Of a DNA stretch of 64,000 nucleotides, positions 3,095 to 47,940 are shown in pieces. Within the stretch, counting starts at the first letter, position 1, and the number at the start of each line of letters is the position of its first letter. The position numbers and the translations under genes are program-made. Under the pieces are notes generated by a model, which worked only from the letters and a program-made list of their open reading frames with translations, did not search any database and was not told where the DNA came from. Source of the DNA: Octopus vulgaris (taxonomy: Eukaryota); NCBI GenBank assembly GCA_951406725.2, contig OX597827.1, positions 77,314,001-77,378,000 on the forward strand, given 5' to 3'.

Positions 3095-3760
3095 ATTACT
3101 TAGGGCCTTTTGGGGGTCAGTAAAATAAGTATGATCTGAGCTCTTGGGTCAATGAAGTTGATTTACCTGCCCCCCCCCTCCAAAATTGCTGGCCTTGTGC
3201 CAAAATATGAAACCAGTATTGCTTTTGTTAGAAAGGTGTCAAACTGGCAGAATCGTTAGCATGCCCGGTGAAATGCTTAGCGCCTGTCTTTGCATTCTGA
3301 GTTCAATTTCTGCAGGGGTTGACTTTGTCTTTCATCCTTTCAGGGCTTATAAAATAAGTACCAGTTGACTACTGGTGCCAGTGTAATTGACATGCCCCAT
3401 CCCACCAAATTGCTGGCCTTGTGCCAAAATTTGAAATCAATATTATATTCACTTGTAAGGCAGGGAGCTAGCAGACTTGTAACCATGCTGGAAAAATTAC
3501 TTAGCAACATTCTGTCCATCCTTACATTTCGGGGTCCATAAAATAAGTAGTGGGGTCAGAATTACCACATCCTCTGAAATTGCCGGCCTTGTGCCAAAAA
3601 TTTGAAAGCAGTATTATATTCACTTGTAAGGTGGTAAGGTTGTTATGATGACAGAAAAAAGGCTTAACGGTTTTTCTTCCGATTTCTCCTCCTGAGTTCA
3701 AATACCACCAGGGTTGACTTTACCTTTTACTCTTTCGGGGTCAATAAAATAAAGACCAGT
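3095..3760 (+). mobile_element. Cluster of SINE family B fragments (tRNA head plus GCCTTTCATCCTTTCGGGGTCGATAAA central domain, Meta-like)
   Basis: Repeated GAGTTCAAATT B box and GGCCTTGTGCCAAAA tails. Confidence 0.7.
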
Positions 3761-3761
3761 T

Positions 3762-4369
3762 GGGATCCACAGAGGGGATGACAGGGGACTGAGATTCCTG
3801 GGACCCACAAAGGGGATGACAGGGGATCAAGATTCCTGGGATCCACAGAGGGGATGACAGGGGACTGAGATTCCTGGGACCCACAGAGGGGATGATAGGG
3901 GACCGAGATTTCTGGGATTTACAGAGGGGATGACAGGGGACCGAGATTCCTGGGATCCACAAAGGGGATAACCGAGGACCGAGATTCCTGGGATCCACAG
4001 AGGGGATGAAAGGGGACTGAGATTCCTGGGATCCACAGAGGGGATGACAGGGGACTGAGATTCCTGGGATCCACAGAGGGGATGACAGGGGATCGAGATT
4101 CCTGGGATCCACAGAAGGGATGACAGGGGACCGAGATTCCTGGGATCCACAGAGGGGATGACAGGGGACCGAGATTCTTGGGATCCACAGAGGGGATGAC
4201 AGGGGACCAAGATTCCTGGGATCCACAGAGGGGATAGCAGGGGACCGAGATTCCTGGGATCCACAGAGGGGATGGCAGGGGACCGAGATTCCTGGGATCC
4301 ACAGAGGGGATGACAGGGGACCGAGATTCCTGGGATCCACAGAGGGGATGACAGGGGACCGAGATTCCT
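3762..4369. repeat. 38-bp minisatellite, 16 copies
   Basis: Unit GGGATCCACAGAGGGGATGACAGGGGACCGAGATTCCT; the last unit starts at 4332 = 3762 + 15x38. Confidence 0.95.
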
Positions 4370-4980
4370 GGTGGTTTGCTGTGCTTGAAAAGACATTTCA
4401 AGCTAAGTATAAGCATGGTTGCCCTTGGATACAGGCCTGTCCCCTGCAACCCTTTTCAGCTGAGCATCCCTAATCTTGCAGATTCATAGGTGATGGGGCC
4501 ACATAAAAATCCCCTGAGCCATTGCTGCATAAAAAGCAGCCAGTATACTCTGTAAAGGGGATGGTATTAGGGAGGGCATCCAGCTGTAGAAGCCATGGAA
4601 CCTGGACGCTCCTGTCAAACTGTCCAACCCATGCCAGCATGGAACATGAATGTTAAACGATGATTATTAAACTCTGGGGTTGACTTAATTAACTCATCTC
4701 CCCACCCCTCACCTGCAGGCCTTGTGTCAAAACTTGAAACTAATATTACATTCACCTGTAATATTTTTCAACTGTTTTATAAGTATCCTGTGTAGTTCTG
4801 ATTAGAATTGAACCTAAACTTTTTGGCACACAGCTCAAACCGCTAAGCCAAAGTATTTTTGATATTTGTGTTCTTGCTTAGAAAACAAGGAAAATTCTAA
4901 TTTTATGAAACCAGAATTGTCCATTGGACACCCCAGGATGACGAAACATTAAACTTAATTTATTTGCTCTGGTTGTTATC

Positions 4981-13159: not shown

Positions 13160-13670
13160 ACCAAATTGTTTTAAATGGCTGCTTGAGCCATGATTCCAAA
13201 GAGTTAAAACAGATGCTTGAGCTAAGACCTCCAAATGTTTTGCTGGCTGCTTGAGCCAAGACCCTACATGTTTTAAATGGTAGCTTGAGCCAAGATTCCA
13301 ATTGGTTAACCAGATGCTTGAGCCAAGTCTCCAAATGTTTTTAATGACAGATTGAGCGAAGATCCCCAAATGTTTGAACTAAGACCTCCAAATGTTTTGC
13401 TGGCTGCTTGAGCCAAGACCCTACATGTTTTTAACAGTTGCTTGAGCCAAGATCCTACATGTTTTAAACAGATACTTGAACCAAGTCTCCAAATGTTTTT
13501 AATGACCGATTGAGGTCAAGATCTCCAAATGATTATACAGATGTTTGAGCTAAGTCTCCACATGTTTTTAATGGTTTCATGAGCCAAGATCCTTAAATGA
13601 TTAATACAGATACTTGAGCCAAGGTCTCAAATATGTTGTTCTGATTCAATGACAGAAATGTTTGAGCTCA
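13160..13670. repeat. Diverged ~34-bp tandem array with a CTTGAGCCAAG core
   Basis: About 14-15 cores at roughly 34-bp spacing, each followed by an AAATGTTTT-like element. Confidence 0.85.
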
Positions 13671-14136: not shown

Positions 14137-15849
14137 TCACTGCATCAATGTCTGAATGTTGTGGACAGCCTCCTGGCTCTCGCATTTCCTCTGGCCATAA
14201 GTCGGGTTCGATGTGTTGGTCCAGCCTGCATTCCAGTTGGCCGTTATGGCAGCGTTACGCTTCCAGTTGTAATTATTCTCAGCAGCTCTTTGCGGCACCA
14301 TCTGTTGATGGTAGGTGGCCGTGTTCATCGTCGAGGTTGCAGTCATGTTTGATGACTGCTGAGATGGTGGTGGAGGCGGCGGCGGTGGCGCCTGCTGCTG
14401 CTGCTGCGGCTGTTGCTGCTGTTGTTGCCTTAGCGGCGCATGTTGATGCATCATCTGATGCGAGCAGGCTGACATTGTCGATGGATCTTTCTGGGCAGCT
14501 GGTTGCTGTTGTTGTTGTTGTTGTTGTTGCTGTTGTTGTTGCTGCTGCTGCTGCGGGGCCGCAGTAGAATATTTGATCTGCTGTTGTGAATACTGTGTGT
14601 TTGTCGTCATAACAGCCTGTTTGTGGATCGCCGCAGTTTGGTTAATCATCTGGGTAGTGTAGGTCCCTGAAGATGACGAAGCTTGAGGTGAAATCATCGA
14701 TGGAGGTTTAGGAAGGTTTGGGGCTTGGTTAGCGCCCGACGACGACGAGGTTGATGTGACTGAAGCTGAAGGCACACTGGTTGCTGACATCCGGTCCGCT
14801 TTGTGCACATTTTGGTGCTTGTTTAAATGGGACTTTTGGGCAAAGTTCTTGCCACAAATTGTACAATGGAATGGTTTCACCCCAGTATGAGTCCTTTCGT
14901 GATTCTCCAGTCGGTCCCTTTGGGGAAAAACCTTGTGGCAGTAAGAGCAAGGGAAGTGTTTACCTGTATCAGGAGCCAATAAGTGACGGTTGAGGTAGGC
15001 CTTCAGGGTGAAGCCTTTCCGGCATACATCACACTTAAAGGGTTTATCTGCGCTGCCGGGCCCGCTTTTGCGTTTGCCCACCTGGTTAAGGTGTTGGGGG
15101 CAGGTCTTGCTGTGGTTCTCGAAATGATGGAACTGATGATGATGCTGATGATGCTGGTGTTGATGATGCTGATGCTGATGTTGGTGGTGTTGATGCTGGT
15201 GTTGATGTTGGTGGTGTTGATGCTGGTGTTGATGCTGATGCTGATGTTGAAGGTGGTGCTGATGTTGTTGGTGGTGCTGGTGATGCTGATGGTGGTGATG
15301 ATGTTGCTGCTGCTGCTGCTGCTGTTGTTGTTGCTGCTGTTGCTGCTGATGCTGTTGCATGGAATTCATCATCATGGTCATCGCAAGGGTCTTGCGGCGC
15401 TTCATGCTCCGGTCGACGGCGTTTGGCGACTTTGTGCCGGTGTGGACGTGCTTGTGGGTGTTCAGGTGTGACTTCTGTGAAAACGACTTGGAGCAGATGT
15501 TGCAGACAAACGGCTTGACCCCCGTGTGAGTGCGTTCGTGCGTCTCGAGGCGGTCCCTCTGCGGAAAGATCTTGCTGCAATAACTGCAGGGGAAGTGTTT
15601 ACCGGGCTCAGGGGCCAACAGGTGTCGATTCAGGTAGGCTTTCAACGTAAATCCTTTACGGCATATTCCACATTTGAAAGGTTTGTCCCGGGACTTGTCT
15701 GGTTTCTTGATCAGCTCCATAAAGTTTGTAAATCCGTTCTGTGATGCCGTTCCACCGCAAGTGTGTACCTCAGCCTGACTATCATTATTAATACCACAAC
15801 AGTTGTTGTTAAACTGTTGTTGCTTTCCCCCACACTGCATCTGGTACAT
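14137..15849 (-). CDS. C2H2 zinc-finger protein (~570 aa): two 3-finger blocks separated by a polyQ/(HQ)n tract, with a polyQ/polyP C-terminal region; single coding exon
   Basis: Long ORF with CxxC-x12-H-x3-H motifs and TGVKP linkers. First ATG at 15849 (the track's start at 15855 is GTG), with an in-frame TAA just upstream at 15865-15867. Confidence 0.93.
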   Translation of the reverse strand: MYQMQCGGKQQQFNNNCCGINNDSQAEVHTCGGTASQNGFTNFMELIKKPDKSRDKPFKCGICRKGFTLKAYLNRHLLAPEPGKHFPCSYCSKIFPQRDRLETHERTHTGVKPFVCNICSKSFSQKSHLNTHKHVHTGTKSPNAVDRSMKRRKTLAMTMMMNSMQQHQQQQQQQQQQQQQQQHHHHHQHHQHHQQHQHHLQHQHQHQHQHQHHQHQHQHQHHQHQHQHHQHQHHQHHHQFHHFENHSKTCPQHLNQVGKRKSGPGSADKPFKCDVCRKGFTLKAYLNRHLLAPDTGKHFPCSYCHKVFPQRDRLENHERTHTGVKPFHCTICGKNFAQKSHLNKHQNVHKADRMSATSVPSASVTSTSSSSGANQAPNLPKPPSMISPQASSSSGTYTTQMINQTAAIHKQAVMTTNTQYSQQQIKYSTAAPQQQQQQQQQQQQQQQQQPAAQKDPSTMSACSHQMMHQHAPLRQQQQQQPQQQQQAPPPPPPPPSQQSSNMTATSTMNTATYHQQMVPQRAAENNYNWKRNAAITANWNAGWTNTSNPTYGQRKCESQEAVHNIQTLMQ

Positions 15850-40877: not shown

Positions 40878-43364
40878 TTACTTTGTTTGCTTTGGGCCAC
40901 AGGAGACACCGCTGGGCACATTTGCTGCCCAAGTTGAGCCTAACAGGGGTGGCATGGGGTAACCTCGTGACCAGAGGTAATTATTTTCCCAAATGTGAGG
41001 CATGCCATGTAAATATGATGAAGAAGAAGCTGGTGATGGCTGTGGTCGCACAGGAGGGACTTGTGTATCTCGGTGCGACTCCGGTTGGACCGTTGTACAA
41101 GATCTACTATTGTTTTTCAACGAGCTGATTTTCTGTGTGCTAACAATATCCTTGACATGAGCTAAAGAGTCGCACGATGAGGGAGACGAATTATATACAG
41201 TCTTGTCGTTTGTTATGTTCGAGCTGCTTGGCTCCACGGTCTGTTGGGGCAGTTTGGAGTACATCCTGCAGCTGTTCGAGTTACTGCTTGCTGCTGGACA
41301 TTTATGGTTTGTTAAGGAAACCCTGTGTAAAAACTGCTCCCCGCAAATCTGGCAGCTATAGCGTTTCTCCGCCGGTGTATGAGTTTGTATGTGTACCTTT
41401 AACTCACTTTGCTGTGCAAAAACCTCGCCACAAAACTCACAACTGATCTGTTTTGACTGGCTATCCTCTACAATTCCATGGGTTTTCTCGTGAGTTTTTA
41501 AGAAAAACTGGTTACAGAAGCCCTTCTTACAAATTCCGCAAAAGTATAGATCTCCGCTGTGAATCCGTTGGTGATCTATGAGACTATTCCGTTGAGAGAA
41601 GGACTTGTCGCATACACTACAGGTAAAAGGCTTTTCCCCAGTGTGGGTCCTTAGGTGGAGCTTGAGATTGCCTCTCTGAGAGAAAGTTTTCTTGCAGAAG
41701 TTGCATTGGAACGGTCTTTCTCCAGTGTGAGCTCTTTCGTGATTTTTTAGGAAAAACTGGTTACAAAACGGCTTCTTACAGAAGCTGCAGAAGAAGAGTT
41801 CTCCAGTATGCACACGTTTATGGTCGGTTAAGTTGTTTCGCTGAGAGAAACACTTGCCACAAAGTTCACAGTTAAATGGTTTCTCCCCTGTGTGTTTTCG
41901 TAAATGTTGCTTCAAGTTGCCTCGCTGCGCAAATGTTTGATTGCAAAATTCACACTGAAACGGTTTCTCCCCTGTGTGCACTCTGAGATGGTTTTTCAGG
42001 AAGAACTCATTTGTGAAGCCTTTTTTACAATAAGAGCAGTAAAATAAATCCCCTGTGTGTATGCGCTCGTGAATTTTTAAGAAGAATTTATTACAAAATG
42101 GTTTTTTGCAGTAGTTACAATAATAAAGCTCTCCAGTATGGAGTCTTTTGTGGTCGTTTAAATTAGTCTTTTGTGCAAAACCCTTGCCACAAACTTCACA
42201 CTGGAAGGGTTTCTCCCCTGTGTGCGTTCGTAGATGGGTCTTTAAATTGCCACGTTGTGAAAAAACTTGTGGACAAAACAAACACCGGAATGGTTTCTCT
42301 CCAGTATGAGACCTGGTGTGGTTTTCCAGGAAAAACTGATTCGGAAACCCTTTCTTGCAGTAGTTGCAATAATATAAATCTCCCGTGTGTACTTTTTCAT
42401 GAATCTTTAAGAAAAACTGATTGCAGAATCCTTTTTTACAGTACTGACAGTAGAAGAGGTCACCAGTGTGTAGCCGTTTGTGGTCAGTCAGGCAGTTCTT
42501 TTGAGAGAATGCCTTACCACAGGCATCGCAGACAAAGTTCTTCTCACCTGTGTGTGTTCTGAGATGTGTCTTCAAGTTGCCTCTCTGAGAAAACGCTTTA
42601 TCACAGAAATCACAATGAAAAGGTTTCTCCCCCGTGTGGGCTCTCTCGTGGTTCTGCAAGAAAAACTGGTTACAAAATGCTTTTTGGCAGAACTGACAGA
42701 AGAACAAGTCTCCTGTATGCACTCTTTTATGATCGGTAAGGCTATTTTTCTGTGCGAAAGTCTTGCCACAGACGTCACAAGCAAACGGTTTGTCCCCTGA
42801 ATGCATCCTCAGATGAAGCTTCAGGTTGCCTCTATGAGCAAAGCTCCTGTTACACACTGAACATTGGTACGCCTTCTGGTTTGTAGAGAGCGACATGTTA
42901 TTGGTGGCATGGCTGTGCGTACAGTAGTGCGTTTTTAAGTCGACCAACTGGAAGAATTCCTTGTTACAAAAGGAACAGGCAAACGGTCGCACGCCCATGT
43001 GAATGCGTTCGTGTGTACGTAAGATAAAGGAGTTTGGGAAAACCTTTTTACAAAAAGCACAGGTTAGTTCTTTGTCTTGGTTGTTAGGTGCCACAGGAGG
43101 TAGAGTGTTGGTGGTACTGGTGTTAAGGGCTGGCACTTCAATCTCTTCTTGGCTTGATCCAGCATTGTTAATAAGGGGCACGTTTTCTTCGCTGAAATGT
43201 TTCCGGGGAATATCGGGCTGTCGGAAACCTTTAGCACCCTGCGATGGGCTGTTCTTGTCAGTCTCTTTCAAATGGGTGCTTTGGTTCGAATACATGGATT
43301 GGTTGTATATAGAGGAGTGGTCCCCCATACTGGGGTACGCTGGCTGTATCGGGTACATACTCAT
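40878..43364 (-). CDS. Multi-finger C2H2 zinc-finger protein (~828 aa; 20 canonical fingers plus one degenerate C2HC-like finger); single coding exon
   Basis: Uninterrupted ORF with TGEKP/TGDL-linked fingers. ATG at 43364 in CAAAATG context (the track's start at 43382 is TTG), with an in-frame TAA at 43395-43397. No KRAB/SCAN/ZAD/BTB domain recognisable. Confidence 0.95.
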   Translation of the reverse strand: MSMYPIQPAYPSMGDHSSIYNQSMYSNQSTHLKETDKNSPSQGAKGFRQPDIPRKHFSEENVPLINNAGSSQEEIEVPALNTSTTNTLPPVAPNNQDKELTCAFCKKVFPNSFILRTHERIHMGVRPFACSFCNKEFFQLVDLKTHYCTHSHATNNMSLSTNQKAYQCSVCNRSFAHRGNLKLHLRMHSGDKPFACDVCGKTFAQKNSLTDHKRVHTGDLFFCQFCQKAFCNQFFLQNHERAHTGEKPFHCDFCDKAFSQRGNLKTHLRTHTGEKNFVCDACGKAFSQKNCLTDHKRLHTGDLFYCQYCKKGFCNQFFLKIHEKVHTGDLYYCNYCKKGFPNQFFLENHTRSHTGEKPFRCLFCPQVFSQRGNLKTHLRTHTGEKPFQCEVCGKGFAQKTNLNDHKRLHTGELYYCNYCKKPFCNKFFLKIHERIHTGDLFYCSYCKKGFTNEFFLKNHLRVHTGEKPFQCEFCNQTFAQRGNLKQHLRKHTGEKPFNCELCGKCFSQRNNLTDHKRVHTGELFFCSFCKKPFCNQFFLKNHERAHTGERPFQCNFCKKTFSQRGNLKLHLRTHTGEKPFTCSVCDKSFSQRNSLIDHQRIHSGDLYFCGICKKGFCNQFFLKTHEKTHGIVEDSQSKQISCEFCGEVFAQQSELKVHIQTHTPAEKRYSCQICGEQFLHRVSLTNHKCPAASSNSNSCRMYSKLPQQTVEPSSSNITNDKTVYNSSPSSCDSLAHVKDIVSTQKISSLKNNSRSCTTVQPESHRDTQVPPVRPQPSPASSSSYLHGMPHIWENNYLWSRGYPMPPLLGSTWAANVPSGVSCGPKQTK

Positions 43365-47014: not shown

Positions 47015-47387
47015 CTGTTTGAAATATAAGGAGAAAGAAAAAAAGATAAATTTGAAGGTTGAATGGAAGAAAGATATAGAGTGATGTTTTAAAATGACAG
47101 AGAAGATAAACACTGGACAATAACAATATGATGCTGCAGATGCTGCTAATGGTGATGGTGGTGGTGGAGGTGATGATGATGGCAATGATGATGATGACAG
47201 GATCGGAATGGCAATAATTGAGATTCAGAATACACAGACTCACAGATATGAGATGATATAAAAAAACAAAAACAAACAATCAAGGTAAGTAACAATATTC
47301 TCTGAAACAGACATCATTCGTTGATATATACAGTGAAAGATATACACACACATGTATATGTGTGAGTCTATGTATGTGTGTATATAC

Positions 47388-47448
<61 letters not shown>

Positions 47449-47451
<3 letters not shown>

Positions 47452-47940
47452 GGTGCAGTGAATAAACTGTTGTCTAAATTATACATCAAGTGCCTGGGGG
47501 AAATAGTGCTGCCCTGGGTCAAGAGAGTGACTGCTGGAAGACCCTATGTCTGGCAACAGGACTCTGCACCATGCCACACAAGCAGGAGAATGCAGTCATG
47601 GCTGTCAGACAATTTCTGTGACCACATCACCCCTAACATCTGGCCACCTAACTCCCCAGACTGCAACCCCCTTGATTATTGTGTGGGGGCGCAGTTGAGC
47701 AAGATGCCAACAAAACTCCTTGTAACACCAAAGATGATCTGATGGCAAGGATTAAGGCAGCATTCACCAACTTAAACAAGGAGACCATCCAAAAGAGTTG
47801 CAGGAGATTCCGAAGTTGTCTGGAGGCTGTGGTTGAAGCTAATGGCGATTTTACTGAATAATTTTACTCTTTAGTATTTCAAGATATTTTAAAGTAATTT
47901 TGGTAAATATATCTGTTAAAATGCAATGTCAGTATTAAAG
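47449..47940 (+). mobile_element. Internally deleted, frameshifted Tc1/mariner DD37D (maT-like) transposon
   Basis: WQQDSAPCH...WPPNSPDCNPLDY with 37 residues between the catalytic Ds; C-terminus RFRSCLEAVVEANGDFTE in a shifted frame; TA-CAGGGTG terminus. Confidence 0.8.

Follow-up and report, generated by a model that had tools for sequence, protein, structure and literature searches.

A conserved, tryptophan-rich segment of about 40 residues, here called the Trp module, lies at the end of the low-complexity tails of octopus C2H2 zinc finger proteins; it marks one old subfamily of these proteins and not the whole C2H2 expansion. The segment came to light in two genes within a 64,000-nucleotide stretch of Octopus vulgaris DNA (OX597827.1, positions 77,314,001 to 77,378,000; hereafter the window), where a first-pass annotation had proposed that an eight-residue unit, E-N-N-Y-x-W-x-R, serves a local zinc finger cluster as a lineage-specific, cofactor-recruiting module comparable to KRAB or ZAD. 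Judging from sequence comparison, we consider it somewhat better than an even bet that the module is a linear docking site recruiting one shared co-regulator to an old coleoid C2H2 subfamily. For the zinc finger expansion, a headline feature among cephalopods' genomes, the papers searched described no effector module.

Both annotated motifs were found on the minus strand, near the C-terminus and in frame with C2H2 fingers. The features of the two genes are as follows, with bit scores from profile A1, in which gene 1 and gene 2 are themselves included.

14137..15849, minus strand: gene 1, a single open frame of 570 aa with two triplets (an atypical three-ligand finger plus two C2H2 fingers), H/Q repeats and a low-complexity tail of 221 aa
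15835..15849, minus strand: N-terminal family motif of gene 1, degenerate (MYQMQ)
14803..15672, minus strand: finger region of gene 1, four canonical C2H2 fingers and two without the second His
14212..14325, minus strand: whole Trp module of gene 1, about 38 aa, 59 bits
14257..14280, minus strand: ENNYNWKR core of gene 1, 39 aa before the stop
40878..43364, minus strand: gene 2, a single open frame of 828 aa with 20 C2H2 fingers and a low-complexity tail of 166 aa
43311..43358, minus strand: N-terminal family motif of gene 2, M-Y-P-x-Q-P-x-Y type
41379..43061, minus strand: C2H2 array of gene 2, in which hydrophobic NQFFL fingers take turns with fingers of the family type (Gln at -1, Asn at +3)
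40920..41033, minus strand: whole Trp module of gene 2, about 38 aa, 81 bits
40965..40988, minus strand: ENNYLWSR core of gene 2, 28 aa before the stop, with the conserved first Trp in front of it

As the annotation had described, the low-complexity tail precedes the motif in each protein, a further Trp follows it, and no familiar effector domain is evident: Pfam matches above cut-off were to finger families only, with none to KRAB, ZAD, SCAN or BTB. The best ungapped 8-mer match between the two tails scored 37, a value equaled in none of 200 shuffles (mean 25, maximum 34). When contigs from four public runs (RNA status not on record) were compared with gene 2, three joined the array and the tail in one piece, and the sole difference within the 8-mer was synonymous. 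Contigs from two of the four runs carry a coding-strand A-to-G difference at position 41524 (Lys614Arg, in the last array fingers), which is either an allele or RNA editing. No orthologue of gene 2 was found by a word-indexed protein search, an insensitive method. Exact look-ups recovered 1 of 10 sequences, and the frame of one family member is identical throughout to a protein labelled O. vulgaris / O. sinensis.

The two gene 1 fingers without a second His lie at 15672 and 15033 (minus strand), and in many family members (among them L147, L151, L152 and L155) the first finger of the array lacks this residue (C-x2-C-x12-H-x3-A/S). Between 41478 and 42698 (minus strand), the typical and NQFFL fingers of gene 2 alternate with short TGDL/TGEL linkers, a pattern common to L082, L086, L088, L091 and L094; the NQFFL fingers possibly do not read bases. 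Elsewhere, the window holds a Tc1/mariner-transposase-like remnant at 47293-47742 (plus strand; a weak DDE_3 match of 18.5 bits, under cut-off) and, as seen in translation and sequence, minisatellite-like tandem repeats at 3741-4473 and about 13200-13620.

The conserved stretch proved far longer than the eight residues first annotated. Across paralogues, its core pattern is W-E-N-N-Y-x-W-x-R-G-F…W-x-N, spanning about 40 residues, and the fuller consensus often begins with W-M, followed by Y-L-H-E/Q-M-P-x-x-W-E-N-N-Y-x-W-S/P-R-G-F-P-M; the further W-x-N stands about 14 residues past the invariant Trp. Among 27 non-redundant paralogues, the second Trp is present in all, Arg in 26, Tyr in 25, the first Trp in 24 and Phe in 22, and the residue after the core Glu is N, S, T or G. 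The gene 1 copy is degenerate, with Ala in place of the first Trp. Counted from the last finger, the tail that ends in the module measures 103 to 298 residues, and 22 to 58 aa separate the module from the stop in 27/27; both this distance and the terminal residues differ between members. Tryptophan makes up 99 of 1,026 module residues versus 10 of 4,713 remaining tail residues. The module's composition is W 9.6%, Y 4.9%, P 11%, S 14.7% and M 5.9%, and the net charge of its 38 aa lies between -2 and +3 in every paralogue. After the module, L080, L082, L088, L089 and L094 carry a sub-clade motif, K-Q-x-K-Q-x-x-W-x-x-I/L-Q-x-M/I-H, and gene 1 and L100 have a different common end, QRKCESQEAV...IQTL.

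A selection check over the motif, suggested by the annotation, revealed protein-level constraint. In 24 ungapped members, pN/pS was 0.43 over the whole module and 0.20 in its core, both at saturated pS, versus 0.92 in an unalignable upstream segment, and mean paralogue identity was 0.39 in the module versus 0.17 in an upstream segment of equal length (406 pairs); such conservation figures are inflated, since it was through the module itself that most carriers came to light. The fixed residues use mixed codons, with Arg encoded by all six. With codons mixed and pS saturated at fixed residues, neither a recent duplication nor an element acting at the nucleotide level can be the cause, and the pattern is that of purifying selection on the protein.

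The module was detected at no fewer than 32 loci in the octopus genome, all counts here being lower bounds: 30 on contig C14 and two on contig C4, with 29 of the 32 in frame behind C2H2 arrays. The C14 carriers are grouped near 0.3, 15, 34, 51 and 75.6-78.6 Mb, so that the family is scattered along the contig rather than gathered in the one local cluster that had been supposed. Searching the genome with E-N-N-Y-x-W-x-R gave 31 matches versus 17 for the reversed control; all 12 matches on C14 close C2H2 frames, versus none of the 18 examined elsewhere, the 31st match having no locus. A wider pattern gave 21 matches, every one at a known locus, versus 1 for its control, and a single tail used as a protein query matched 28 of 30 scored candidates. 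Three extra seeds, including divergent copies, added one member or none. Four loci are irregular: L097 (C14 near 78.515 Mb) has a frameshift, inside a CAG/CAA repeat that lies between its array and its module, and is either a pseudogene or an assembly error; L104 and L105 (C4 near 97.94 and 95.38 Mb) are finger-less copies of the L106 tail with the module intact; and L147 (C14 near 78.947 Mb) has an eroded tail end and an array over two frames 1.5 kb apart, probably due to an intron.

With 13,209 HTGEKP-type linkers in the genome and 1,453 C2H2 sequences reported for O. bimaculoides (PMC12513265), the carriers amount to a few percent of the repertoire. About 30 genes out of approximately 1,450 or more in Octopus, by published counts, do not bear out a KRAB- or ZAD-like module for the whole expansion. 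A C2H2 group on the protocadherin chromosome comprises 165 genes, or 9% of the total, in O. bimaculoides, and that chromosome is chromosome 14 in O. sinensis (PMC9068888, PMC9795677); we infer that contig C14 is the protocadherin chromosome. As controls, we used 14 C2H2 frames on contig C1, the first genes in the HTGEKP-linker listing and not a random sample; all 14 lacked the module, and they stop 2-17 aa past the last finger.

A second shared motif, beyond what the annotation saw, lies at the N-terminus. It reads M-Y-[PS]-x-Q-[PS]-x-[YF]-x-x-G-x-Q, or in a looser form M-Y/F-P/S-x-Q-x-x-Y/F, and begins at the apparent initiator Met (starts of L080-L106). Of 34 family frames, 31 have an M-[YF]-[PSQTR] start, and position 5 is Gln in 25 of these 31, whereas 0/14 control frames start in this way; the motif is also present in module-less relatives and in protein P0002. 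The fingers themselves are distinctive: 245/334 family fingers have Gln at -1 versus 35/176 control fingers, and 154 combine it with Asn at +3 versus 5 in the controls. Under the zinc finger recognition code, Gln-1/Asn+3 fingers would favor A-rich sites. In a tree made from fingers only (the last eight at most; 64 rows, 219 columns), the carriers and four module-less relatives stood on one side of a branch with an SH-aLRT of 97, together with one long-branch outsider, and a single clade for carriers and these relatives was not rejected (p-AU 0.988); because tandem-array alignments are unreliable, we regard this tree as supporting only.

The finger signature L-x-N-H-E-R-V/I-H-T/S-G occurs at 53 places, 52 of them on C14, in 26 genes, with none for the control; 18 of the 26 are known carriers that had been used to design it. 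The other eight comprise two genes with weak module copies (24.5 and 20.6 bits), four family-like genes with no module within the DNA fetched around each, and two ordinary genes with one matching finger each. This result indicates that the module is confined to the subfamily and has been lost or eroded in part of it, where it is dispensable. Altogether, the data describe a conserved non-finger segment limited to one C2H2 subfamily.

A profile search of 1.84 billion representatives returned 11 hits at E up to 0.001, of which nine were true. The named carriers are Sepia (Acanthosepion) pharaonis, Argonauta hians and three Octopus species, and no non-cephalopod name appears among the true hits; the repeat proteins P0010 and P0011 scored at most 8.5 bits and were rejected as chance. 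The module was absent from 116/116 other zinc finger proteins, all of which scored under 5 bits. Word-indexed protein searches, which are insensitive, gave nothing in one case and five hits in another, missing known carriers. When the module was masked, the best hits of Sepia P0001, P0018 and P0006 were L089, L083 and L092, clear and distinct; that of P0005 was L106, with a weaker match, and the short fragments P0007 and P0009 had no clear octopus partner. Module identity was 30/38 in the P0001 pair and 28/38 in the P0006 pair, versus 41/134 and 44/153, respectively, in the upstream tail. The P0001 and P0006 records are named 'KRAB', a misleading label: Pfam found no KRAB match in them, nor ZAD, SCAN or BTB. 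Masking the module thus leaves at least three Sepia proteins each paired with a different octopus paralogue. The module therefore predates the octopod-decapod split, dated to about 275 Mya (PMC9068888), and by the same pairings several paralogues are older than this split. Conserved in octopus/Sepia pairs and present in many further C2H2 proteins, the module escapes both of the sequence-based refutations that the annotation had named; it is lineage-restricted as far as the searches extend, but belongs to one old subfamily rather than the entire expansion.

The module is predicted to be disordered. AlphaFold2 gave the isolated module a pLDDT of 56 and a pTM of 0.14 with no secondary structure, from a shallow alignment of 26 rows that limits the prediction; in full-length gene 2, the module had a pLDDT of about 29-30 and the tail one under 50. 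Pfam yielded no match above cut-off for 26 modules, and Peptidase_S48 and two other hits below it were taken as chance; no PDB sequence matched at an E-value of 10 or below, and the ESM Atlas gave no usable match. The word 'motif' is absent from the main texts of PMC9068888, PMC9795677 and PMC12513265, as is 'C-termin' from that of PMC12513265; the small supplements of PMC12513265 and PMC9068888 gave no match, and the passages on C2H2 genes in PMC13218726 hold no description of the module. Absent from Pfam, the PDB and the papers searched, the module is apparently undescribed there, in keeping with the annotation's remark that the motif was not a recognized one.

We compared the modules with known docking motifs. 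The Groucho-binding C-terminal WRPW/Y type was found in 0/27 modules, as were the CtBP, RAM, Nanos-NIM and SUMO patterns; the loose eh1 pattern (FxIxxI) was found in 4/27, which does not place the module in the eh1 class, and a LIR-like pattern in 7/27. The HCF-binding motif is D/E/N/Q-H-x-Y or D-H-x-x-Y with an anchor His (10.64898/2026.03.19.712392); ENNY resembles it, but the essential His is missing in 27/27 modules.

Predicted disorder combined with position-fixed Trp, Tyr and Arg makes a docking motif for one partner the simplest reading. The fingers would bind DNA, the invariant Trp, Tyr and Arg would fit a specific pocket on the partner, and paralogues with different finger arrays would in this way all deliver the same activity, each to targets of its own. 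As to the partner, we favor a co-repressor, at slightly more than an even chance, over a co-activator, which is possible but clearly less probable, and leave the small remainder to other kinds; this leaning reflects the position-fixed residues, the non-acidic segment and the frequent use of short motifs by repression domains. The majority of repression domains recovered in human tiling screens contain a SUMO site, a short co-repressor motif or a structured binding domain (10.1101/2022.08.26.505496). Several points count against docking: no known co-repressor motif among those tested matches the module; aromatics amid P/S/Q also suit non-acidic activation domains; a degron or other role would leave equal conservation; three loci are broken (the frameshifted L097 and the two finger-less C4 copies); and the six family-like genes that came to light through other features include four with no module and two with a weak one.

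The best placed of the alternatives, though improbable, is a non-acidic activation segment, in which aromatics spaced by P/S/Q would bind co-activators loosely and with no single pocket, perhaps together with the aromatic N-terminal motif. The module's content of W, Y, P, S and M agrees with this: human activation domains depend on aromatics or leucines set amid acidic, P, S or Q residues (10.1101/2022.08.26.505496). The net charge of acidic activation domains, however, is -8 or lower, with at least six W/F/L per 39 aa (PMC10550315), and the module falls outside this class, its charge in 27/27 being far from the threshold. Furthermore, composition alone does not require a fixed order or an invariant N, N and R. 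A degron or localization signal, by which a ubiquitin ligase or transport factor would read the module and set turnover instead of transcriptional output, is a little less probable again. Degrons are often disordered, near a terminus and built on bulky conserved residues, as the module is by prediction, position and composition; yet its distance to the terminus and its terminal residues vary, and some 40 conserved residues are long for a degron.

We think it quite unlikely that the module acts like the W-motifs of GW182, recruiting CCR4-NOT (or Argonaute) and making these proteins post-transcriptional or CCR4-NOT-dependent repressors. W-motifs are defined by WG/S/T and G/S/TW (PMC5314787), and G, S or T adjoins 69/99 module Trp versus about 50% expected, in columns that are homologous and not independent. 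GW182 motifs, however, are additive in an S/T/G-rich context, whereas the module also fixes E, N, N, Y, R and F, and the array linkers are typical of DNA-binding fingers. Very unlikely is a hexapeptide-like motif docking in the pocket of a TALE (Pbx/Exd) homeodomain: in 27/27 modules, the invariant Trp is followed at +2 to +5 by a basic residue, and Y-x-W-x-R agrees with the loose definition (PMC4539518), but the Y/FPWM core is found in 0/27, and the first Trp and ENN are left unexplained. The motif lies 100-300 aa downstream of the fingers instead of in the 30 aa that precede a homeodomain, and genes 1 and 2 contain no homeodomain. Among 12 loci from a TALE search, there was no Pbx-type homeodomain and no intact homeodomain frame; on contig C20, at 22.8-23.2 Mb, at least eight TALE-class homeobox copies that resemble one another form a cluster. 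Scarcely more than a slim chance attaches to self- or cross-association among family members, in the way that ZAD or SCAN dimerize: the module is aromatic-rich and the analogy with other C2H2-associated modules is in its favor, but ZAD, SCAN and BTB are folded domains and no fold is predicted for the module. Least credible of all is shared ancestry without protein function, by recent duplication, gene conversion or a DNA/RNA-level element, which would fit the confinement of every carrier to one finger-defined group but is largely refuted by the codon pattern, with saturated synonymous sites at fixed residues, diverged flanks and octopus-cuttlefish orthologous pairs.

The docking reading can be taken further, to an effector system of the coleoids' own, serving about 30 ancient neural transcription factors on the protocadherin chromosome, in which the C-terminal Trp module and the N-terminal M-Y-x-x-Q motif might jointly recruit a dedicated co-regulator by an undescribed mode of recognition, and which would give a first effector handle on the cephalopod zinc finger expansion; this we propose tentatively, as a possibility that is more doubtful than docking itself. 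The module singles out a small old subset with near-fixed fingers, unlike the tail-less controls sampled from the bulk of the expansion, which it leaves unexplained. It also offers a sequence marker with which to extract the subfamily from any cephalopod genome or single-cell atlas, and, as a short peptide with obvious point mutants, it makes the mode of action of these factors directly testable.

Like KRAB in tetrapods and ZAD in insects, the module is a family-wide effector candidate joined to variable finger arrays; KRAB and ZAD, however, are N-terminal domains, while the octopus module is C-terminal and has no Pfam match. SNAG, the FOG/SALL NuRD motif and the Egr R1 region likewise serve for docking, as short conserved stretches within disordered regions of C2H2 proteins, and SNAG and the NuRD motif begin at the initiator Met, as does the second octopus motif. 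These three are pan-bilaterian, whereas the octopus family is so far known only from coleoids and has motifs at both ends; to our knowledge, the module shares no sequence likeness with any of them. The Hox hexapeptide, or PBC-interaction motif, has an aromatic-x-Trp followed by a basic residue (PMC4539518, PMC4901127), but the module lacks the YPWM core and an adjacent homeodomain and has a much longer conserved context. Several Trp in a disordered S/T/G-rich region recall GW182/TNRC6 (PMC5314787), from which the module differs in its position-fixed non-Trp residues and in its hosts, which are C2H2 arrays. The FiNZ-ZNF proteins of cyprinid fish also carry a short (28 aa), lineage-restricted conserved segment that resembles no known domain, marks a C2H2 subfamily and has a partner likewise unproven (PMC10547256). 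The FiNZ segment is N-terminal, acidic and on its own exon, in about 700 genes, many of them adaptively evolving (PMC10547256); the octopus module, in contrast, is a neutral, Trp-rich C-terminal segment that shares the open frame of the fingers, in about 30 old genes whose orthologous fingers are highly conserved. Finally, C2H2 expansion common to octopus and decapods has been described as four coleoid-wide clusters of 163, 132, 76 and 39 sequences (PMC12513265), and the Trp-module family may be one of these four.
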